Shown here: piece after piece, positions 40,232-58,835 of the stretch
How the letters are laid out: every line of letters begins with the position of its first letter
Numbering within the stretch: the first letter of the stretch is position 1
From: Actinomycetota bacterium
GTDB lineage: Bacteria; Actinomycetota; Actinomycetes; S36-B12
Direction: 5' to 3'
Length of the DNA stretch: 64,000 nucleotides
Assembly: GCA_030681835.1 (NCBI GenBank)
Contig: JAUXRN010000032.1
Location: forward strand, 2,487-66,486
Position numbers and translations under genes: made by a program
The notes under the pieces: model-generated
Told to the model about the DNA's origin: nothing
The model's database searches: none
Seen by the model: only the letters and a program-made list of their open reading frames with translations

Positions 40232-41317
40232 TCAGCTTGGTCGTGCCCGTCGCCGCGAGTACATGTCGTGATCGGCCCGGCGGATTAGTGCGTCGACGTC
40301 GAGGTGCTGGTCGTCAACGATGGCGCTGCCGATACTGACCTCGAGCGGCCAGGTACCCAAGGCGGCTCGGCTGCGTCGGATGCTCTCCCGCACGCGCTGG
40401 GCCAGGGCATCGGGTTCTTGCGGCGATCCGACGCCGAGGACGAGGAACTCGTCCCCGCCCCACCGCCCGAGGATGTCGCCGTGGCGCACGCTCGCCTTGA
40501 GCGCGTCGGCGACCACGGTGATGACCTGGTCGCCGAACCCGTGCCCATGCGTGTCATTGGCCTGCTTCAACCCGATGATGTCGACGAACACGGCGAACAC
40601 GGGCGACTGCTCTCGACCCGCCGAGGCGACGAGGTCCGGAAGGCTTCGCTCCACCCCGTGTCGATTGAGCAGGCGGGTGAGCTGGTCCTCGGACGCCAGG
40701 GCCGCGACGCGGGCTGCCAACTCACCCAGCTCGGCGATGCTGCGCAGCCGCAACCACAGCAGCGTCATCCCGATTGCGACAGCCGCCAGCGACGCGATCA
40801 CCCAGTCGGTGGCCTCGGTCGACGGGAACTGCCGGGAGACGAGGACGCATCCGACAACCATGGGTGCTGCCACCACGACGGCGGGCGTCCAGGCAAGCGT
40901 CAGCGGCGAGTAGGCGACCACGATGAGCAGGACGTAGGCGAACGCGGCCCCGTCGGGGTGCATCCACACCTGGATCTGGCCGGCCGTCACCATGGCCAGG
41001 GCGCACGCGGCTGCTACCCACGGCGTGACGCGCGACGGCACCCAAGACCGGTGGGTGAGCACCGCCCCTGCCCCGAGGAGCAGAGCCACCAGTCCGTTGA
41101 GGAGGATCGTCGTGGCGGACATGGGCGGCCCGAAGAGCGCATTGATGACCGTGATGGAGACGAAGCACACCGCGACGACCGCCAGAGTACGAGGCGTCTC
41201 ACGCGAGGCCACCGACAACCGGAACGCGGTCCTGCCCGCCGCGCTGAGTGTCATCGAATGCCTACCCCGTCTTGCCGGCGGTGCCGCGATCGCTTGATGG
41301 CTAGACGGTAGCGTCAT
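40232..41317 (-). CDS. membrane-anchored diguanylate cyclase (GGDEF)
   Basis: ~5-6 TM N-terminus, then DQLTRLLNRH...GGDEFLVLG. Start is uncertain. Confidence 0.85.
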   Translation of the reverse strand: MTLPSSHQAIAAPPARRGRHSMTLSAAGRTAFRLSVASRETPRTLAVVAVCFVSITVINALFGPPMSATTILLNGLVALLLGAGAVLTHRSWVPSRVTPWVAAACALAMVTAGQIQVWMHPDGAAFAYVLLIVVAYSPLTLAWTPAVVVAAPMVVGCVLVSRQFPSTEATDWVIASLAAVAIGMTLLWLRLRSIAELGELAARVAALASEDQLTRLLNRHGVERSLPDLVASAGREQSPVFAVFVDIIGLKQANDTHGHGFGDQVITVVADALKASVRHGDILGRWGGDEFLVLGVGSPQEPDALAQRVRESIRRSRAALGTWPLEVSIGSAIVDDQHLDVDALIRRADHDMYSRRRARPS

Positions 41318-42657: not shown

Positions 42658-44055
42658 TCACCGGGTCACTGACCCGTCTCCCCGCTGGGCGATCAGGTCG
42701 CGCAGGGCGGGCTCGAACGCCTCGCCGTAGGTGGGAAAGGCATGGACGACGTCGACCAGGACGGTGAGAGGGATCTGGGCCCGGATGGCCAAGGCCGCCT
42801 CGGCCAGCCATTCGTCGGCATTCGGGCCGATCGCGGCCGCGCCCACGAGCACTCCGCTCGCACGGTCTGCCGTCAGAACCAGGATTCCCTCCGAGGGGCC
42901 GTCGATCGCCGCTCGACCCGTCTGGTCCAGATCCATCATGGCGGTGAGCAGGCCCTCGTCCGGAGTGCCCGTCCCGGCGCTCCGTCCCACGCTGGCGACA
43001 GGAGGATCGGTGTAGATGGCTCGCGGAATGGCGATGTAGCTGGCCGATCGATCGCATCCGAGGAGGTTGTCGGCGACGATGCGTGCCTGGTAGTTCGCGG
43101 TGTGGGTGAAGGGGGCGACGCCGGTGACATCCCCTGCTGCCCAGACATGCTCGTGGCCCGTGACCCGGCACTGGTCGTCGATGGGGATGGCACCCCCTTT
43201 GTCGACCTCGATGCCGAGGGTATCCAGCCCGAGGTTGTCAGTATCCGGGTACCGCCCCGTGGCCACGATGATGCGCTCCACGTCGACGCTCGTGCCGTCC
43301 GACAGGCTCGCGCGCACCGCTCGGTCTGAGGCCGTGACCTGCACGGCGGTCGTCCCCAGCCTGACGTCGATGCCGTCACTCCTCAGCACCCGGGCCAGCC
43401 GTGCGGCCACCTGAGCCTGCTCGCGGCCAGCCAACTGTGGCCCCGCCTCAATGAGGGTCGTGACAGCTCCGAAGCGGGCGAAGACCTGCGCGAGCTCGCA
43501 GCCGACGGGCCCGCCGCCCAGCACGAGGACTGACGATGGGCGGTGCGAGGCCGAAAGGGCCTCATCGCTCGTCCACGTCGCCACTCCGGTGAGCCCCTCG
43601 ATCTCCGGCCTGGCTGGTTGCGATCCAGTGCTGATCACCAGGTCGGTCCAGCCGAGTTCTCGGTCATCCACGGCCACCACCCCCTGGCGCCGGATGCGGG
43701 CCTTGCCACGAACCAGCTCGACGCCGTGGGACTGAAGCCTGGCTGCGGCGCGGTGGTCGTCACGGTGCTCTGCGATCTCGTCCCGTCGCCGAACTGCTCG
43801 CTGGAAGGCTGCGTCGTCGATGAGGGACGCTGACGCGACGGATGCGGCTCCGAGTGGATGGGAAGCCACGTCGTCGTGGTGCTCCCGGGCGCTTCGAAGC
43901 ATGGCCTTGCTCGGCATGCAGGCGACGTAGGGGCACTCACCGCCGACGCGACTTCCCTCAACGAGCGCGACGGTCCGACCAGCGTCCACGAGGAGCGTCG
44001 AGAGCAACTCCCCGGCCGACCCGCCCCCTACGACAACGACATCGAAGTGCTCCAT
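42658..44055 (-). CDS. FAD-dependent pyridine nucleotide-disulfide oxidoreductase (class I, dihydrolipoamide/mycothione reductase-like)
   Basis: VVVVGGGSAG, redox-active GGECPYVAC, C-terminal HAFPTYGE. Start at MEHFD after GAGGAG. Confidence 0.85.
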   Translation of the reverse strand: MEHFDVVVVGGGSAGELLSTLLVDAGRTVALVEGSRVGGECPYVACMPSKAMLRSAREHHDDVASHPLGAASVASASLIDDAAFQRAVRRRDEIAEHRDDHRAAARLQSHGVELVRGKARIRRQGVVAVDDRELGWTDLVISTGSQPARPEIEGLTGVATWTSDEALSASHRPSSVLVLGGGPVGCELAQVFARFGAVTTLIEAGPQLAGREQAQVAARLARVLRSDGIDVRLGTTAVQVTASDRAVRASLSDGTSVDVERIIVATGRYPDTDNLGLDTLGIEVDKGGAIPIDDQCRVTGHEHVWAAGDVTGVAPFTHTANYQARIVADNLLGCDRSASYIAIPRAIYTDPPVASVGRSAGTGTPDEGLLTAMMDLDQTGRAAIDGPSEGILVLTADRASGVLVGAAAIGPNADEWLAEAALAIRAQIPLTVLVDVVHAFPTYGEAFEPALRDLIAQRGDGSVTR

Positions 44056-44251
44056 CGGCGTCTCCTCGGGCATGGTCTTGCAGTGGCAAGGCTTTGGAGC
44101 GTTCATGCCCGCCTTCGGCGACGGCCGAGTGGACGGCCCCGGCCGCAATGCCGACGCTAGCCCGGTGCGGGGGTTGTTGTCAGTCGGGTGAGACCTCCGG
44201 CACGGGCGGAGTACAGCCAACCGCGCGGTGGCCTGGGCGCTATGTTGAAGC

Positions 44252-44791
44252 ATGGGTACTGCGCATCACGTCGATCGCATCGACCCCCCAGTGGCCGCCG
44301 ACGAGGCCCGGACGCTCCTAGGTTTTCTCGACTACCAGCGTGCGACGCTGCGCTGGAAGTGCATGGGTCTGAGCGCGAGCCAACTCGGCACACCGGTTGC
44401 GCCAACGACCCTCACGCTCGGGGGCCTGCTCAAGCACCTGGCCGTCGTGGAGGCGGGATGGGTGAACCAGACCTTCGCCGGGGGAATCGTCAAGCCGTCG
44501 TGGTTCGACGAACTTGACCATGACGACCCGGATTGGTCCTTCACCTCGGCGGCGGGCGTCTCACCCGAGCAGTTGTTCGCGTGGTTAGACGAGTCCATCG
44601 CGGTGTCAGATCGTGTTATTGCCGATGCGCTGGCAGGCCCTGACGGCCTCGGATCTCTATCCGTAGGGGTCGAGGACGGGCGGCCCATCTCCCTGCGCTG
44701 GATCATCTGTCACTTGATCGAGGAGTATGCCCGCCACAACGGCCACGCCGACCTCCTTCGCGAGGCGATAGACGGGTCTACCGGCGAGTAG
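44252..44791 (+). CDS. DinB/DUF664-family protein (mycothiol-transferase-like fold)
   Basis: LLGFLDYQR...LLKHL...HLIEEYARHNGHADLLRE. Confidence 0.8.
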   Translation: MGTAHHVDRIDPPVAADEARTLLGFLDYQRATLRWKCMGLSASQLGTPVAPTTLTLGGLLKHLAVVEAGWVNQTFAGGIVKPSWFDELDHDDPDWSFTSAAGVSPEQLFAWLDESIAVSDRVIADALAGPDGLGSLSVGVEDGRPISLRWIICHLIEEYARHNGHADLLREAIDGSTGE

Positions 44792-45171: not shown

Positions 45172-45324
45172 CCGGCTGCGCCCTGGCGCACCTCGTTCCG
45201 CTCGCTTCCCTGCTCCGCAACGTCGGTGATGCGTTGCTGTCTGAGCTGCGCCGGTGCCGGGTATCTCCCACCCAATCGGGGCTGGCACGCCTGCTGGGGC
45301 CGACCCAGACGAGCGAGGATCACG

Positions 45325-46578
45325 ATGACATCTGATACGCAGTTCCCTGTCTCCGGATACGATCCGCAGGCCTCGGAAGTCCCCACTACATCACAAGGAA
45401 CGCCGCTCGCGTACACGGAGCGCTCCTTGAAGGTCGGTCGACGAGGCCCGACGCTCCTCGCGGATCACCATTTGCGTGAGATGACCACGAATCCTGACTA
45501 CGAGCGCATTCCCGAGCGCGTGGTGCACGTTCGAGGGGCGGGCGCCCATGGAACCTTCGTCGGTAACGGTGCCGCGGCGGCCTTCTGCCGGGCAGGCTTC
45601 CTGGCGAAGGGCGTGGAAACTCGACTGTTCGCGCGCTTCTCCACTGTGGTCGGATCTCGCGGCTGAGCAGACACGGCTCGCGATACCCGTGGGTTCGCGG
45701 TGAAGTTCTATACCGGAGAGGGGACCTTCGACCTCGCGGGGAACAACATCCCGGTGTTCTTCATCCAGGACGGCATCAAGTTCCCTGACCTCATCCATGC
45801 CGCCAAACCCCACCCGGACACGGAGGTCCCGCAAGCGCAATCGGCCCACGACACCTTCTGGGACTTCGTCTCATTGCACACGCAGGCAACCCACCACGTG
45901 CTGTGGGTCATGAGCGACCGCGGGATACCGCGGTCCTATCGGATGATGGAGGGCTTCGGAGTGCGCACCTTCCGCGTCTCCGACGCCGAGGGCAAGACGG
46001 CACTGGTGCCCGATCTCGCAGCCGAGGTTGGAGCGCAGCTCGGGCTCACCCCGCCCTCTGTCGATGAGGCGCCCAAGGGCTTCCTGTCACCGGCACCCAG
46101 CCAGCTGAATCGCGGCGTGTTTCCCGCACAGGGGCGCGTCATCGGGATTGTGGTTGGCAGCACGACCGCCGTCGCGGGCTTCGACGATGCACTGGCAGTG
46201 GCTGCGGAGGCGGGAGTCACCGTGCGGCTGGTCGCTTCGACGGGAGCGCCGGTTGACGTGGACGGCGCCGCGATCGGTCCGGACCGCACCTACGCCGCGA
46301 CACGATCGATCGAGTTCGACGCGGTGGTCATCCTCGCCGCCCCGGAAGCGGAGCTCGATGCGCGCGTCATCACCCTGATCGAGGAGGCATACCGCCACGG
46401 CAAGGCGATGGCTTTCGCAGGAGGCTTCACTGCCATGGACGCCGGGATCGTCGAGGACGAAGGCGCATTGACGACGGAGTCACTCGCTGATGCGGTCGCC
46501 ACGCTGATCGAAGCACTCGGTACCCACCGGGTCTGGTCGCGGCTGGAGATGCTGGGCGCACAGACCCACGCCAGCTAG
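45325..46578 (+). pseudogene. katE: large-subunit (HPII/KatE-type) catalase, inactivated by in-frame TGA and ~300-aa internal deletion
   Basis: The N-terminal part reads ERIPERVVHVRGAGAHGTF...RFSTVVGSRG, then TGA (45664-45666), then continues in the same frame as [16 protein letters not shown]...[16 protein letters not shown]...[16 protein letters not shown]. After ...GKTALV it jumps to the linker and C-terminal DJ-1/flavodoxin-like domain ([10 protein letters not shown]...). Confidence 0.8.
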
Positions 46579-48413
46579 GTCCCGGCAGGGCGATCGTTTG
46601 GGTCGTTGCTCCGGGGGCGTGCGGCCGGTGCCAATCGCGCGTTACCGGAGTCGAGCAGTCGACTCGCCGTTTCGTCGATCCGACCGATTCCGGGGCGGAG
46701 GGCATCTAGCCCCGCGGGGAGTGCCTGGGGAGGCACGCCCCGGCGGGCCAGCAGGTGCTCGAGCCAACCGAGGAACTCGAAGAACACGGTGTCGTCGCGC
46801 GCCGCGAGCGCGGCCGCCAGGAACTGCACGACATAGACGAGATCCTCCCGGGTCCGGGCGAGCTTGGCCTCGTCGTACGCAGCCATGGCCGGGAACGATC
46901 GGGCGAGGCCCTGCATCGCCTCCGCGCCAAGCGCGTCGGCATCAGCGAAGAGTTGAGCAGCGACCGGGTCGAGGGGGATCGGTGCAGGGTTGACGGTGGG
47001 GCGGGTGGAGCGCCAACTGGCAATGACGGGTGCGGCCTCCTGGGCGGAGGCCGCCCAGGCGTCGGCTCCAAGGTGCAGGGCGCGACGCGAGTCCGTGCCG
47101 AAGGCCCGGCCGCCGACGATGGCAGGGATCCCGCGTGCATGTGCCGCATCGATGAGTCGGATGACGCCTGGGAAGAAGATCGGCAGGCTGCAGGACACGG
47201 CCAAGGCGTCGCAGCTTGAGCGGTCCAGGAAGTCGGCGACGGCGTCGACGGGCGTGGAGGCCCCGAGCACGCTGACGCCGAAACCATGCGATCGGAGCGA
47301 CTCGCCGAACATCTGCGCGGCCAAGGAGTGCCAGTCCCCTTCCGAGCAGGTCACGACCGTCAGACCGCTCACGTCGACGTGGCTCGTCTCCGCGGCGAGG
47401 GCGTCGAGGGCCGCGGCCGCCACGCCACTCGCCAGGTGCTCGTCGACGGGCGTGAGCTCGTTGCGCTGCCAGCGCTCGCCGACCTCGCACTGCGCGGCAG
47501 CCAGCAGGTCCACCACGATCTGCTCGTAGGGAACGTGGTTGTCCAGGAGGTCGAGCGTCTGGCGGACACCCCCAGTTCGGTCGCCGCTCAGGGCGTCGCC
47601 AAGGTAGGACTCGACGAAATCGCCCGGGGTGGACGTGGTCGTGTGCGTCCCGGCCCGTGCCCAGACCCAGCGGTCGCGTCCGGCCTCCTTCGCCTCGTAT
47701 AGCGCGGCGTCGGCCCTGGCCATCACCTCGGCGGGGTCCCCCGACGACAGCGCGATCCCGGCCGAGAAGGTGATCGGCTGGGGGCGCACCGCCAGCCAGT
47801 GGTCACGCAGCCGGGAGAGGAAGGCGTCGGGGTGGGCCGAGGCAGGAAGGACAACGACGAACTCCTCACCGCCGTAGCGTCCGACGGTGTCGCGACCGCG
47901 GACAGTGGCGAGCAGTGCCGCGCCGAAGGAACGCAGTACGTCGTCCCCCACCGCGTGCCCGAAGTCGTCGTTCACCGCCTTGAAGTGGTCCAGGTCAAGC
48001 ATGATCACGGCTTCGGAATCGGCGAGCCTTCCCAGCGAGCGCTCCAGCATCCTGCGATTCGGCAGCCCCGTGAGGACATCGGTCGACGCCGACTCGGCCA
48101 GTCGCTCCACTCGATCGCTCAGCTCCAGCGCCTGCCGGGCGTCGAGCAGGAACGTCGGCAGGTAGCGGTCGAGGAGAGTGCGTGCGCTCGTGGCGGGCCG
48201 TGCGGCCGCCAGGACGGGAGCGCCTTCCCCGAAGGAGAGGTCTGCTGGGATCGCGCTTCCGTCGGCCGTGTCAGCCGGGACGACGTCGCCGCCGAGGCCC
48301 TGGACCAGCGTCGCAGCAATGCGCGCCGCGTCGGCGGCCGTGTCCACCCACAGCAGCGAGCGCGTCGCCTCAAGGACCGCGTTCGGAACCACGGCCCGGG
48401 CATCATTCGCCAT
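46575..48413 (-). CDS. multidomain diguanylate cyclase: N-terminal domain, GGDEF, B12-binding cap (Wx9EH), Rossmann B12-binding domain, C-terminal helical domain
   Basis: GGDEF with GGEEF (aa ~108-255). [18 protein letters not shown] matches W-x9-[14 protein letters not shown]...SCSL...VGGRAF matches DxHxxG...SxL...GG. A C-terminal ~130-aa helical domain of unknown type follows. Confidence 0.85.
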
Positions 48414-48741
48414 TGCTCACCCCAGGATCAGGGAGGAGCCGGTACCGCCGGAACGCCGTGCCACGGGGGCGTTCGGGGGTGGATGGGATCCGCGCGTGGG
48501 AGCGTCGGTGGTCATCCGACTTCATGTACTCCCCGAATCGCTCGGCGTCGTCCCACCAGGACACCATCTGGAACACTCCCGGCGCGTTGATGTCCTGCCA
48601 CACCTCGAGTCGCTGGAACCCGGGCGCGGCTTCCACCAGGTGCAGGCGGTCGCGGAAGGCTCCGTCGAGCTGGCCGCTGAATTCGGGGGAGATCGTCACC
48701 TCGCTGCTGACGATGAACGCATCTGGCCTGTTGGGAATCAT
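48403..48741 (-). CDS. antibiotic-biosynthesis-monooxygenase (ABM/HmoA-like) domain protein
   Basis: 112 aa ferredoxin-like ABM pattern (FQRLEVWQD...FQMVSWWDDAERFGEYM). It overlaps the downstream GGDEF gene by 11 nt. Confidence 0.7.
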   Translation of the reverse strand: MIPNRPDAFIVSSEVTISPEFSGQLDGAFRDRLHLVEAAPGFQRLEVWQDINAPGVFQMVSWWDDAERFGEYMKSDDHRRSHARIPSTPERPRGTAFRRYRLLPDPGVSNGE

Positions 48742-49454
48742 CGCCTGTCACCGTGCCGTCCGACCGAGCGGATCCCGGTGTCGCAGGAGATCACGACGGG
48801 TGGGGGCTTGTGACCGACGCGAGCATCAACGACGACCGTGGGGCAGTGCATCCCGGCGTCAGCCGTGAACTCCCATGCTCCGCGGTGCACGCGCAGGCTG
48901 AACCCGTCCGCCCCCGATGTGACGGTTCGGTGTCTCGTGCCGGAAGTTGCGGTCACCGTGGCGGACGCCCCAATGGTCTCGCAATCCTCGCCCGGGCGCT
49001 GAACCGGGCAGGTGGGTCCCAGGTCGACTCGGCCCCGCAGCGTGACCATTCCCGGCTCGGTCAGCAGTGCCCGGTAGGTCCGCCAGCGGGCGGTCGCGCA
49101 GCCATCCGCACGGTCGAACCGGGCGTCGACCGGCGAGCCCCGCCACTGTCCGACTACCCGAGCCCTCTCCGGGCCCGAGAAGACCATCGTGCACGCCATC
49201 CCCGTGGGTGCCTTGGCGAACGGGGCAGCGAGGCCGTCCAGGAACGCGCAGGCCTCGACGCGATTGGGATGGGTTCCACCCACGGGGTCGCACTGCAAAG
49301 TCCACGTGTCCGTCAATCCCGGCGCCCAGCGCATGGTCACCGTCAGCTCTGATGCCCGAGGGATGGCCTGCGAAGGCCCCGACGGGCCGATCGTGGAGGC
49401 GAGGACGACGATGACTGCCGCCGTGGTGCTGAAGAGGCGCTGCCCCGGGGTCAT
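48738..49454 (-). CDS. secreted protein with subtilisin-inhibitor (SSI)-like N-terminal domain
   Basis: It has a signal peptide, then LTVTMRW...WTLQCDPVGGTHPNRVEACAFL...CTMVFSGP...G.WRG, typical of SSI. An extra C-terminal ~100 aa follows. Start at MTPGQ. Confidence 0.65.
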   Translation of the reverse strand: MTPGQRLFSTTAAVIVVLASTIGPSGPSQAIPRASELTVTMRWAPGLTDTWTLQCDPVGGTHPNRVEACAFLDGLAAPFAKAPTGMACTMVFSGPERARVVGQWRGSPVDARFDRADGCATARWRTYRALLTEPGMVTLRGRVDLGPTCPVQRPGEDCETIGASATVTATSGTRHRTVTSGADGFSLRVHRGAWEFTADAGMHCPTVVVDARVGHKPPPVVISCDTGIRSVGRHGDRR

Positions 49455-49838
49455 ACACCATTGTGTACCCGATCGGAGCGCCGAGTCGCATGGCATGACA
49501 ACGACGAGGCGATGGTCCTACGGTTGACGTGCATCCGGTGGCCGATGGCCCACGTGGCGGGCGCACTCACCCCGGCGAGTCCGCCGACCCCCCTACGCCG
49601 TGCCGCACAGCTGGCGGCGCCTCGCGAAATCCTCCTCATCGCGGGCGGAGCTGTCGAGGACGAGCTGCCATCCGCCATGTCGATCCAGGCGGGCTCCCCG
49701 GAAACGGTGTCGGCTTGGGCGATTCCCGCAGCAGGCACTGGCCGGACTGGCGAGCCAGCCCCAGGAATGGGAACGACGCGTCAGAGGAATCCTGGATGCC
49801 GAGCTCGGTGCGGCGGGCGGAAGGCCTGCGCCGCGATA

Positions 49839-57341: not shown

Positions 57342-58835
57342 ATGCGATTGACTGGGGTCGTGACGAGGCGCTGGCTGTTCGGCGACCAGCTCGGCCCGCA
57401 CTTCCTGGACGACCACGACCAGCCGGTGCTGATGATTGAGTCACGCGAGGTGTTTGCCCGTCGCAGGTTCCATCGAGCGAAGGCCCACCTGGTGCTTTCG
57501 GCAATGCGCCATCGGGCGGCGGAGCTGGGCGAGCAGTGCGTGTATGTGCGGGCCGCCAACTACACGGTGGCGCTGGACCGCATTGGTGAGCCGCTGAGCG
57601 TGTGCCACCCGACGTCCCGTTCGGCCCTCACGTTCGTCCTGGGGCATGGCGACATCGACATCCTGCCGGCGCGTGGCTTCGCGACGTCAGCTGATGACTT
57701 CGCACGCTGGGTGCAGTCCCGCGGGCGCAGGCGACTGCTGATGGAGGACTTCTACCGAGACTCGCGACGTCGGCTCCGAGTGTTGATGGATGGCGAGGAG
57801 CCAGTCGGGGGCCGCTGGAACTTCGACGCCGACAACCGGGAGCCACCACCCCGTTCGTCATCGCTCGGCGTTGCCGAGCCGGCATGGCCCGTGGAGGACG
57901 AGATCGATCAGGAGGTGCGCGACGACCTGGATCGGTGGCAGCGCGATGGGCACGTGAGGTTTCTGGGCGTGGACGGACCTCGGCGTTTCGGCGTCACCCG
58001 CGATGAGGCGCTGGCCATTCTCGACCGCTTCATCACCCATCGCCTACCCAAGTTCGGCCCGCACGAGGACGCAATGCTGTCCGGTGATCCCTGGATGGCG
58101 CACTCGATGCTGTCGGCGCCGATGAACCTGGGCCTGCTCGAGCCCGTTGAGGTCGTCGCGCGGGCCGAGGGTGCCTATCGGCGTGGCGAGGCCCCGCTGG
58201 GGTCCGTTGAGGGGTTCATCCGGCAGGTCCTGGGCTGGCGCGACTTCGTCTGGCACCTGTACTGGCATCTGCCGGCGTCGTACCGCGACCTCAATGAGCT
58301 CCGCGCGACGGAGCCCCTGCCGGACTGGTTCGCCGAACTCGACGCGGGCTCAGTCGATGCGGCCTGCCTGTCCGGGATCCTTGCCGACGTGCGCGATCAC
58401 GGCTGGGTGCACCACATCCCGCGGCTGATGGTGTTGGGCAACTACGCAATGCAGCGCGGGTGGGACCCAGCGCAGGTCACTGACTGGTTCCATCGCGCGT
58501 TCGTCGACGGGTACGACTGGGTGATGGTGCCCAACGTGGTCGGGATGTCGCAGTATGCCGACGGCGGCATCCTGGCGACCAAGCCGTACGCCGCCGGGGG
58601 CGCCTACATCAACCGGATGGGCGACTATTGCCGTGGCTGCCGCTATGACCCCCGCACGAGGGTCGGGGACGACGCCTGCCCGTTCACAGCGGGCTACTGG
58701 TCCTTCTTGCACCGCAACCGTGAACTCCTCGCCGGCAACGCACGCCTGGCCCAGCCACTGAGCGGACTGGCCCGACTCAACGACCTCGAGGAAGTCCTCG
58801 CTCAGGAGTCCGCGCGCGGGTCCTCTGCTCCCTGA
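57342..58835 (+). CDS. FeS-BCP cryptochrome/photolyase family protein (PhrB/CryB-like, bacterial (6-4) photolyase type)
   Basis: Colinear with Agrobacterium PhrB as recalled: GDQLGP, SAMRH, PVGGRWNFDADNREPP, VEGFIRQVLGWRDF, HHIPRLMVLGN, PNVVGMSQYADGG, and the Fe-S Cys cluster CRGCRYDP...DACPF. Confidence 0.9.
   Translation: MRLTGVVTRRWLFGDQLGPHFLDDHDQPVLMIESREVFARRRFHRAKAHLVLSAMRHRAAELGEQCVYVRAANYTVALDRIGEPLSVCHPTSRSALTFVLGHGDIDILPARGFATSADDFARWVQSRGRRRLLMEDFYRDSRRRLRVLMDGEEPVGGRWNFDADNREPPPRSSSLGVAEPAWPVEDEIDQEVRDDLDRWQRDGHVRFLGVDGPRRFGVTRDEALAILDRFITHRLPKFGPHEDAMLSGDPWMAHSMLSAPMNLGLLEPVEVVARAEGAYRRGEAPLGSVEGFIRQVLGWRDFVWHLYWHLPASYRDLNELRATEPLPDWFAELDAGSVDAACLSGILADVRDHGWVHHIPRLMVLGNYAMQRGWDPAQVTDWFHRAFVDGYDWVMVPNVVGMSQYADGGILATKPYAAGGAYINRMGDYCRGCRYDPRTRVGDDACPFTAGYWSFLHRNRELLAGNARLAQPLSGLARLNDLEEVLAQESARGSSAP

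Follow-up and report, generated by a model that had tools for sequence, protein, structure and literature searches.

An open reading frame of 612 aa in a 64,000-nt stretch of DNA from an uncultured actinomycete (the window) raises the question of whether a light-sensing cobalamin module can be wired directly to cyclic di-GMP synthesis and, if so, whether the design is a new one. A first-pass annotation of the sequence had proposed a light sensor, dependent on AdoCbl, with c-di-GMP synthesis and not DNA binding as its output, and was aware of no characterised B12-photoreceptor diguanylate cyclase. The functional proposal is well supported by homology to the cyclase AbDPcob, 58% identical over the sensor module. 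The statement on precedent is outdated: the GGDEF-B12-photoglobin architecture was predicted in 2021 in the photoglobin paper (PMC8717448), and a diguanylate cyclase-photocobilin was characterised biochemically and structurally by Zhang et al. in Nat Commun in 2024 (PMC10979010). The gene, here called DGC-Pcob (diguanylate cyclase-photocobilin fusion), very probably encodes a photocobilin-type light-activated diguanylate cyclase related to AbDPcob; it is a further member of a known design and not a new kind of photoreceptor. Its architecture, all of its cofactor-contact motifs, its fold and the conservation of these across the family were obtained directly; cofactor binding, photochemistry and activation are predicted from the homologue.

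Domain architecture and nearest relatives

DGC-Pcob occupies positions 46575-48413 of the minus strand, according to the open reading frame list and its translation. The frame reported in the first-pass annotation is real, its strand having been left unsaid, and a 5.4-kb Logan contig carries a call of the same gene at 612 aa. The NCBI entry "MAG: diguanylate cyclase [Actinomycetota bacterium]" is 605 aa long, 100% identical to the frame, and begins at a GTG at codon 8; either start, the ATG (612 aa) or the codon-8 GTG (605 aa), is possible.

The protein, all of whose domains are given here in minus-strand coordinates, was modelled with AlphaFold2 at a pLDDT of 85.9. It begins with a small alpha/beta domain of two helices and three strands (residues 1-75, nt 48189-48413; pLDDT ~88-97) that is conserved in the family, with P10, T17, R18, L20, G41, G42, S60 and G64 among its invariant residues. 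This domain has no Pfam match, and a separate AlphaFold2 model of it (pLDDT 89.6) gave no significant match in Foldseek, where the top entry was a KdpD GAF domain (E=0.16, TM 0.45). A long stalk helix (residues 76-110, nt 48084-48188, from the AlphaFold2 secondary structure) leads into the GGDEF domain; alignments to SiaD, DgcB and PleD in NCBIfam and Foldseek begin at about residues 94-98 and so take in the stalk, which is probably a dimerising coiled coil. The GGDEF diguanylate cyclase domain (residues 109-248, nt 47670-48089; PF00990, E=2.6e-34, also TIGR00254) is followed by a B12-binding_2 four-helix-bundle cap (residues 274-339, nt 47397-47594; PF02607, E=5e-10) and a Rossmann-type B12-binding domain (residues 352-460, nt 47034-47360; PF02310, E=3e-15), all three scoring above their Pfam gathering cut-offs. 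The remainder had been described as a C-terminal helical domain of ~130 aa. It is indeed all-helical from about residue 483 to 594 (nt 46632-46967), but these five helices form a bilin-binding photoglobin domain, identified by Foldseek and by a sequence match to 8J2Y/8J2W that runs to the C-terminus, a second chromophore site that had been missed.

The nearest solved relative is the photoreceptor module of AbDPcob (PDB 8J2Y, AbPcob), deposited as "GGDEF domain-containing protein". A phmmer search against the PDB aligned residues 262-590 of DGC-Pcob to 8J2Y with E=4e-111 and 58% identity over 328 residues, compared with 6e-48 for SasPcob (8J2W/8J2X) and only ~2e-7 for CarH; a match of this quality between the C-terminal 330 residues and a solved photoreceptor module is far beyond chance. 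Foldseek superimposed the AlphaFold2 model on 8J2Y with TM 0.93 and an rmsd of 2.2 Å over 329 columns at 58% identity, and on 8J2W/8J2X with TM 0.87-0.89, and the match to 8J2Y/8J2W extends through the C-terminal five-helix globin fold, which in photocobilins packs against both B12 sub-domains, as far as residue 590.

AbDPcob (GenBank HAS09818), in which a diguanylate cyclase is fused to a photocobilin, comes from an Acidimicrobiaceae bacterium and binds both AdoCbl and biliverdin (PMC10979010). AdoCbl lowers its dark activity relative to the apo protein, green light (530 nm) raises its kcat more than 10-fold, other cobalamins give no activation, and red light is effective only with biliverdin bound; SAXS revealed a light-induced extended state, the oligomeric mechanism of the full-length protein in dark and light being a SAXS and molecular dynamics model and the crystal structure covering the photoreceptor module (PMC10979010). 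AbDPcob has the same order of GGDEF, four-helix cap, Rossmann and photoglobin domains as DGC-Pcob and, compared over the sensor module, the same W-x9-EH, D-x-H and Trp contacts (Trp289 in AbPcob, Trp296 in SasPcob). SasPcob, from Saccharothrix syringae (8J2W, dark state; 8J2X, light state), has the same cap, Rossmann and photoglobin module at 35% identity but stands alone, whereas DGC-Pcob carries a GGDEF output domain. Its chromophore contacts W61/E71/H72, H108, D270 and W296 are identical to W315/E325/H326, H362, D524 and W550 of DGC-Pcob; SasPcob His137, which forms a salt bridge to a biliverdin propionate across the dimer, is replaced by Ala391, and by Val or Ala in other family members. 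Binding of AdoCbl and biliverdin, with Co-C photolysis set off by green and red light, is known only for AbDPcob and SasPcob.

More distant systems share parts of this design. Receptors of the CarH/LitR type, such as Thermus thermophilus CarH (PDB 5C8A/5C8D), have the W-x9-EH cap, as well as the His-on ligation and head-to-tail dimer that are predicted for DGC-Pcob. They carry a MerR-type DNA-binding domain, however, whereas DGC-Pcob has no HTH or MerR match in Pfam, has an enzymatic output and has the additional photoglobin domain; the NCBIfam CarH model reaches E=8e-12 but, at 45 bits, falls short of its cut-off of 400. The earlier term "CarH-type" does not fully describe the sensor, which is a photocobilin predicted to carry two chromophores (B12 and a bilin) and has Gln after the cap Trp. 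Bacteriophytochrome-linked cyclases (for example IsPadC, PDB 5LLW), recovered among the Foldseek matches, are functional analogues in which a bilin photosensor controls, by way of a helical linker, a GGDEF domain that is fused C- or N-terminally. Their PAS-GAF-PHY sensor fold is unrelated to the B12 and globin folds, and their bilin is Cys-linked and photoisomerises, whereas the photocobilin bilin is non-covalent and works as a light antenna for the photolysis of AdoCbl, which is irreversible.

The bilin pocket and the adjacent ABM gene

Alignment places Y513, T521-R-E-D524 (nt 46842-46853) and W550 in the bilin pocket, D524 aligning with SasPcob Asp270 and W550 with SasPcob Trp296 (AbPcob Trp289). 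Asp270 is a key biliverdin contact in SasPcob, and the His at this position of AbPcob is held to hinder biliverdin sterically (PMC10979010). DGC-Pcob differs from AbPcob here and at Tyr513, where AbPcob has Leu252. Among 120 relatives the Asp is found in 115 and the Trp in every one, making AbDPcob, with its His, the outlier. As Asp524 and Tyr513 are the SasPcob residues at which AbPcob departs, these two pocket residues predict that DGC-Pcob would bind biliverdin more tightly than AbDPcob and respond more strongly to red light. The photoglobin family was described by Schneider et al. 2021, and its conserved distal Cys and Asp (CXQD) by Rockwell et al. 2023. The equivalent motif in DGC-Pcob, T521-R-E-D524, retains the Asp and lacks the Cys; the Cys is absent from the two characterised photocobilins as well (PMC10979010), so that DGC-Pcob fits a Cys-less photocobilin subgroup.

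A possible source of the bilin lies next door. Immediately upstream of DGC-Pcob, on the same strand, a gene for a 112-aa ABM-domain protein (nt 48403-48741, minus strand; PF03992, E=8e-12) ends with a stop codon in an 11-nt overlap with the ATG of DGC-Pcob, and the two are translationally coupled. A profile search of the PDB returned TT1380 (1e-11), Bacillus subtilis HmoB (5e-10), MhuD (4e-7), IsdI (3e-5) and IsdG (3e-3), and the nearest solved relatives are ABM-fold heme-degrading monooxygenases of the IsdG family (IsdG/IsdI, MhuD and HmoB). The catalytic triad of IsdG is Asn7/Trp67/His77 (PMC6018153). The axial-ligand His and the ruffling Trp are kept in the ABM protein as His82 and Trp63, whereas the catalytic Asn is replaced by Ser13, invariant in all 11 orthologues aligned; the NCBIfam heme-oxygenase (equivalog) models give 32.6 bits against a cut-off of 119. 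Farther upstream, the stop codon of a subtilisin-inhibitor-like (SSI) gene (nt 48738-49496, minus strand; PF00720, E=8.5e-11) overlaps the ABM start (ATGA), and the two genes are probably co-transcribed at this locus. In two other loci the SSI gene is absent upstream of ABM and a divergent sigma-70 gene takes its place; SSI does not belong to the conserved cassette. At a distance of 9 kb from DGC-Pcob is a photolyase-related gene.

DGC-Pcob loci were gathered by scanning metagenome contigs with a photocobilin-only alignment. An ABM neighbour is present in about 24 of 33 non-redundant loci, this one included (upstream in 23, downstream in one), and ABM orthologues are also found upstream of stand-alone photocobilin genes. 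The canonical Asp/Tyr pocket occurs in 23 of 23 ABM-linked loci versus 5 of 11 unlinked ones (Fisher p=3e-4, in a metagenome sample whose loci are phylogenetically non-independent), a suggestive indication that loss of the pocket residues tracks absence of the ABM neighbour. Three further homologues lacking the Asp had no adjacent ABM gene, and neither did two Asp-bearing controls. The ABM protein, a candidate supplier of chromophore or partner protein, may provide the photoglobin with its bilin. Stated more specifically, and only tentatively, photocobilin and ABM protein (IsdG-like, with a Ser-Trp-His variant of the triad) would form, in this actinobacterial lineage, a conserved two-gene cassette in which the latter makes or delivers the linear tetrapyrrole. 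The pairing parallels that of bphO-bphP operons, in which the gene for a heme-degrading enzyme is co-transcribed with that of the photoreceptor.

These observations bear on an alternative in which AdoCbl would be the sole chromophore in vivo, as in a CarH-type receptor, and the globin-like domain would have only a structural part, as a shield for the corrin edge or as a link to the cyclase, with no physiological bilin. Biliverdin occupancy of AbDPcob is only ~20%, and the authors suggested that the globin domain may serve another function in fusions; photocobilins, DGC-Pcob with its T521-R-E-D524 motif among them, also lack the Cys that anchors bilins covalently in phycobiliproteins (PMC10979010). 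A Pfam scan of part of the window's proteins likewise found no canonical heme oxygenase gene near DGC-Pcob. Yet the His blamed for weak binding in AbDPcob is absent, at Asp524, Tyr513 and Trp550 the protein agrees with SasPcob, a tight binder, the near-complete conservation of Asp and Trp among relatives argues for a pocket under selection, and in most loci the photoreceptor module has an IsdG-like ABM gene linked to it. We consider a B12-only receptor unlikely and favour a photocobilin with two chromophores.

The B12 module, the cyclase and a proposed mechanism

The motifs that the first-pass annotation had read in the B12 module are there as described, residue for residue. The cap motif G312-x-x-W315-x9-E325-H326, has its W-x9-E-H part (nt 47436-47471) within an 18-residue segment at residues 313-330, and its Trp, Glu and His align column for column with W61/E71/H72 of SasPcob and with AbPcob; among the 120 relatives W315 is kept in 120, E325 in 119 and H326 in 120. 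The Rossmann domain contains GDWHSLA (D360-W-H362, nt 47319-47336), followed by SCSL and VGGRAF, and the putative lower axial ligand, His362, corresponds to His108 of SasPcob and occurs in every relative (120/120). All four motifs of the SignatureFinder signature, which was devised to tell photoactive from enzymatic B12 domains (PMC11796333), are present: GxxW (G312-E-R-W315), EH (E325-H326), GxxH (G359-D-W-H362) and GxxxP (G384-A-S-T-P388). The residue that follows W315 is Gln316 and not His. In T. thermophilus CarH the corresponding residue next to the cap Trp, His132, is the upper ligand of the bis-His light state. The light state of SasPcob and photocobilins contains water- or hydroxide-ligated cobalamin and is not bis-His (PMC10979010), and Gln316 fits this state better than that of CarH. 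No B12 biosynthesis or uptake genes were seen in a Pfam scan of part of the window's proteins, and Rfam scans of the locus and of the whole window gave no match to any RNA family, cobalamin riboswitches included.

The GGDEF domain is predicted from its residues to be an active cyclase. The A-site GGEEF, reported as intact in the first-pass annotation, lies at residues 181-185 (nt 47859-47873), an 18-residue segment at 140-157 holds the metal and guanine residues, likewise intact, and TIGR00254 matches at 117 bits (cut-off 37). The I-site RGRD (R172-G-R-D175, nt 47889-47900) stands five residues upstream of GGEEF. The RxxD I-site, which confers product inhibition, is optional in active GGDEF cyclases; here its Arg is kept in all 120 relatives and its Asp in 112, while G181, G182, E184, F185 and R172 are invariant.

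Conservation of the light signature also weighs on the proposal that DGC-Pcob is primarily a sensor of AdoCbl availability, in which cofactor loading would set cyclase activity and photolysis would be incidental in the habitat, a possibility that the first-pass annotation had mentioned too. AdoCbl does lower the activity of AbDPcob relative to the apo protein, and occupancy thus modulates dark output; against this, other cobalamins do not activate that enzyme, and the effect of light on it is large, more than 10-fold (PMC10979010). The full light-responsive signature (GxxW, EH, GxxH, GxxxP, with W-x9-EH) is invariant across the family, and the photolyase-related gene hints weakly at a light-exposed lifestyle, so we regard such a role as improbable. 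The notions that the B12 module is enzymatic (a methyl-transfer corrinoid domain), for which there are weak NCBIfam matches to MtbC and MtgC (E=3e-8 to 1e-4), or that a degenerate GGDEF domain serves as a receptor for c-di-GMP/GTP and not as a cyclase were rejected as effectively refuted by the NCBIfam scores (21-33 bits for MtbC/MtgC (TIGR02370) against cut-offs of 215-370, and a better E-value for the CarH model), by the vastly better matches to photocobilin structures in the PDB, and by motif conservation, the GGEEF, metal/guanine and I-site residues being intact and invariant.

For DGC-Pcob as a light-activated cyclase of the photocobilin type, AbDPcob and SasPcob suggest by analogy the following mechanism. 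AdoCbl in the dark state would be bound base-off/His-on through His362, with Trp315, Glu325 and His326 of the four-helix bundle capping the adenosyl group, and a head-to-tail dimer of B12 modules would hold the N-terminal GGDEF domains in an arrangement of low activity. AdoCbl would absorb green light and its Co-C bond would break; a non-covalent bilin in the photoglobin pocket (Asp524, Tyr513, Trp550) would absorb red light and could bring about the same cleavage through optical coupling. Once the adenosyl group is lost, the Glu-His helix would move and the photoreceptor dimer interface would be disrupted, upon which the protein would open and the GGDEF domains, which the N-terminal domain and stalk helix continue to tether, could form a productive pair. 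This pair, with its intact GGEEF motifs, would convert two GTP to c-di-GMP, subject to product inhibition through the RxxD I-site.

Distribution and significance of the family

A search for the same architecture in other genomes, as the first-pass annotation had suggested, showed the family to be large: the best 120 database clusters all have the ~600-aa three-domain arrangement, at 58-80% identity. In soil and peat Actinomycetota, DGC-photocobilins are thereby confirmed to be common, the architecture being shared by at least 120 sequence clusters. If the ABM protein does supply the tetrapyrrole, the native second chromophore may be an IsdG-type product (mycobilin- or staphylobilin-like, or another isomer) and not biliverdin IX-alpha, and AbDPcob would be an atypical, bilin-poor member of a normally fully dual-chromophore family. 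For B12 photobiology and optogenetics, DGC-Pcob-like proteins, which keep the Asp/Tyr/Trp pocket of SasPcob, would be better candidates for a cyclase that responds to green as well as red light than AbDPcob, the one DGC-photocobilin studied to date, which binds biliverdin poorly, and the conserved IsdG-like neighbour gene offers a lead to the source and identity of the bilin in vivo.

A diguanylate cyclase-photocobilin fusion

The gene at 46575..48413 on the minus strand, here DGC-Pcob, encodes a 612-aa protein, the length given in the first-pass annotation. An alternative start at an in-frame GTG (codon 8) gives a 605-aa product, the form in which the 100% identical NCBI protein ("MAG: Actinomycetota bacterium") is held; residue numbers below follow the 612-aa form. 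Pfam places GGDEF (aa 109-248, E=2.6e-34), B12-binding_2 (aa 274-339, E=5e-10) and B12-binding (aa 352-460, E=3e-15) domains above their gathering thresholds, in agreement with the architecture first proposed, and the GGEEF A-site (aa 181-185), the cap motif W315-x9-E325-H326 (nt 47436-47471), GDWHSLA with His362, SCSL, VGGRAF and a helical C-terminal domain all lie where they had been located. The cyclase domain is intact: besides GGEEF it keeps the residues for metal and guanine (in an 18-residue stretch, 140-157) and, five residues ahead of GGEEF, an RxxD I-site, each of them conserved family-wide. The GGDEF domain is preceded by a family-conserved N-terminal α/β domain and long stalk helix (aa 1-110, window 48084-48413, minus strand). 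In AlphaFold2 models, one of the entire protein, computed with 62 homologues as input (mean pLDDT 85.9), and a separate one of this N-terminal part (pLDDT 89.6), the domain comprises two helices and three strands and the stalk is a 35-residue helix (aa 76-110); Pfam gives no match to the domain, and its top structural hit, weakly GAF-like, is not significant (E=0.16).

A sequence search of the PDB matched aa 262-590 to 8J2Y_A (E=4e-111; "GGDEF domain-containing protein") and to 8J2W/8J2X ("cobalamin-binding protein"), the stand-alone photocobilin SasPcob of Saccharothrix syringae, at ~6e-48; CarH structures reached only ~2e-7. 8J2Y is the photoreceptor module (AbPcob) of AbDPcob, an Acidimicrobiaceae protein that fuses a diguanylate cyclase to a photocobilin (PMC10979010). 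The DGC-Pcob model superimposes on 8J2Y with a TM score of 0.93 (58% identity, rmsd 2.2 Å); for SasPcob the TM scores are 0.87-0.89. The sequence match and the model superposition together show that the C-terminal helical domain is a five-helix, bilin-binding photoglobin domain, and sequence and model alike identify DGC-Pcob as a two-chromophore photocobilin rather than a plain CarH-type module. Residues of SasPcob and AbPcob were mapped onto DGC-Pcob after the numbering offsets of both papers had been verified, and the chromophore contacts of SasPcob correspond one-to-one: the adenosyl cap Trp61/Glu71/His72 to W315/E325/H326 (conserved in 120, 119 and 120, respectively, of 120 relatives), the lower axial ligand His108 to H362 (120/120), Trp296, which touches both the corrin and ring D of the bilin, to W550 (120/120), and the main biliverdin contact Asp270 to D524 (115/120).

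DGC-Pcob also lacks features by which CarH proper is defined. CarH carries a MerR DNA-binding domain, which Pfam and NCBIfam scans did not find in DGC-Pcob, and the cap Trp is followed by His in CarH but by Gln in DGC-Pcob. The light state of CarH is bis-His ligated. The Gln is consistent with a light state like that of SasPcob, reported to be water/hydroxide-ligated (PMC10979010), rather than that of CarH. DGC-Pcob also contains all four SignatureFinder motifs (GxxW, EH, GxxH and GxxxP) that mark light-responsive B12 domains (PMC11796333).

DGC-Pcob belongs to the already described photocobilin-diguanylate cyclase family. Schneider et al. predicted in 2021 (PMC8717448) that photoglobin and B12 domains occur fused to GGDEF, and one such fusion was characterised in 2024 (PMC10979010); the first-pass annotation, aware of no characterised B12-photoreceptor cyclase, has thus been overtaken. 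Such proteins are numerous: each of the 120 top-scoring database clusters is ~600 aa long and has this architecture, at 58-80% identity. Most come from Actinomycetota MAGs or from metagenomes of soil and peat; one is from a cultured genome, Phycicoccus duodecadis.

The bilin pocket and the upstream ABM gene

AbDPcob binds biliverdin weakly, with ~20% occupancy and no 700-nm band (PMC10979010), which Zhang et al. attributed to steric hindrance by the His that replaces SasPcob Asp270, speculating that fusion proteins have a lower need for biliverdin (PMC10979010). At this position DGC-Pcob, like most relatives, has Asp, and at the position of AbPcob Leu252 it has Tyr513, as do SasPcob and 111/120 relatives. 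With Asp and Tyr prevailing among the relatives, it is AbDPcob, and not DGC-Pcob, that is the outlier.

Directly upstream on the same strand lies a gene for a 112-aa ABM-domain protein (48403-48741, minus strand; Pfam E=8e-12), whose stop codon overlaps the DGC-Pcob ATG by 11 nt. Linkage was assessed in 80 metagenomic loci from a photocobilin-only alignment together with loci from an exact-protein look-up, yielding 35 non-redundant full-length DGC-Pcob loci, 33 of them with enough flank to judge. An ABM orthologue (63-70% identical) lies immediately upstream in 23 of the 33 and immediately downstream in one more, L004, bringing linkage to ~24/33. The same ABM family is found directly upstream of stand-alone photocobilin genes without GGDEF (L139, L142, L147 and L160, with L142 checked individually), which ties it to the photoreceptor module rather than to the cyclase. 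The canonical Tyr/Asp pocket is present in 23/23 ABM-linked loci, while the Tyr or Asp is substituted in 6 of 11 loci without the link (Fisher p=3e-4, a value that ignores kinship among phylogenetically non-independent loci). Three additional non-Asp homologues have no ABM neighbour, and two Asp-bearing controls likewise have none. It is suggestive, within this non-independent sample, that loss of the pocket Asp/Tyr tracks absence of the ABM neighbour. In two related loci the upstream ABM gene appears degraded, by an internal deletion (L101, 2928-3129) or by a frame break leaving two fragments (L137, 746-1177), which suggests ongoing loss of the partner in some lineages.

A profile of 11 ABM orthologues searched against solved structures found mostly heme-degrading enzymes of the IsdG family as nearest relatives (B. 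subtilis HmoB, 5e-10; MhuD, 4e-7; IsdI, 3e-5; IsdG, 3e-3), along with the uncharacterised TT1380 (1e-11). An IsdG-type heme oxygenase was nonetheless rejected: of the catalytic triad Asn7/Trp67/His77 (PMC6018153), the Trp and His are kept but the Asn is replaced by an invariant Ser, and the hits of 10/11 orthologues to NCBIfam models for HmuQ and "heme oxygenase" score far below the cut-offs. The photocobilin paper (PMC10979010) mentions neither monooxygenases nor heme oxygenases, and the photoglobin paper (PMC8717448) lists an "ABM monooxygenase" among operon neighbours in passing only; canonical heme oxygenases accompany related globin-B12 systems in Myxococcota (PMC10151467). The ABM protein is a possible bilin supplier or in-trans partner, photocobilins being able to work in trans (PMC10979010), and the analogy with bphO-bphP operons allows the tentative proposal, itself rather doubtful, that it supplies or delivers bilin to the photocobilin.

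Genomic neighbourhood

The stop codon of a 252-aa gene with a subtilisin-inhibitor-like (SSI) domain and a C-terminal extension (48738-49496, minus strand) overlaps the ABM start (ATGA), and on this overlap the SSI gene appears to be co-transcribed with ABM and DGC-Pcob in the window; it is absent upstream of ABM in the loci L001 and L002. On the other side, convergent with DGC-Pcob and with stop codons overlapping at 46575-46578, two adjacent ORF fragments (45226-46578, plus strand; Pfam Catalase and Catalase_C) represent a large-subunit, HPII-type catalase. The matches cover Catalase model positions 1-94 and 107-205 and then pass straight into Catalase_C; with ~180 core residues missing and a frame break, this is probably a pseudogene. 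A gene is called at the same position in the independent Logan contig L166. Together with a 531-aa minus-strand ORF for a pyridine-nucleotide disulphide oxidoreductase and an adjoining mycothiol-S-transferase/DinB-family gene (plus strand), both within 42658-44791, the decayed catalase forms a small redox/thiol-stress neighbourhood beside the photoreceptor. A second GGDEF-domain protein (361 aa, 40232-41317, minus strand; Pfam E=3e-32), with a 200-residue N-terminal region besides the GGDEF, lies ~5 kb away, and a second light-related gene, a 497-aa PF04244 "deoxyribodipyrimidine photolyase-related protein" (57342-58835, plus strand; E=1.7e-36), ~9 kb away. The mycothiol-S-transferase and an ORF whose length would suit an MMPL transporter give the window an actinobacterial look. 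Scans of the locus and of the whole window against Rfam gave neither a cobalamin riboswitch nor any other RNA family.

Proposed light response

The cyclase activity of AbDPcob is lower with AdoCbl bound than in the apo protein, and with AdoCbl its kcat rises more than 10-fold under 530-nm light; methyl-, hydroxy- and cyanocobalamin do not replace AdoCbl, and SAXS revealed an extended light state (PMC10979010). When biliverdin is bound, 660-nm light also triggers Co-C cleavage, and in SasPcob adenosyl loss shifts the Glu-His helix by ~2.4 Å, with a clash expected at the head-to-tail dimer interface (PMC10979010). From this published behaviour we infer cofactor binding and regulation for DGC-Pcob and propose a mechanism in which a photoreceptor dimer bridged by AdoCbl would restrain the GGDEF domains in darkness. 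Photolysis, by green light directly or by red light through the bilin antenna, would release the dimer interface, and the GGDEF domains, still tethered via the conserved N-terminal domain and stalk helix, could then pair productively, with product inhibition acting through the I-site. The light-sensing c-di-GMP cyclase of the first-pass annotation thus keeps its function, by homology to AbDPcob, and gains the second chromophore domain, the photoglobin, which had been missed. By this analogy DGC-Pcob is very probably a light-activated diguanylate cyclase-photocobilin, and on the strength of two pocket residues it is predicted, like most of its family, to be a full dual-chromophore sensor.
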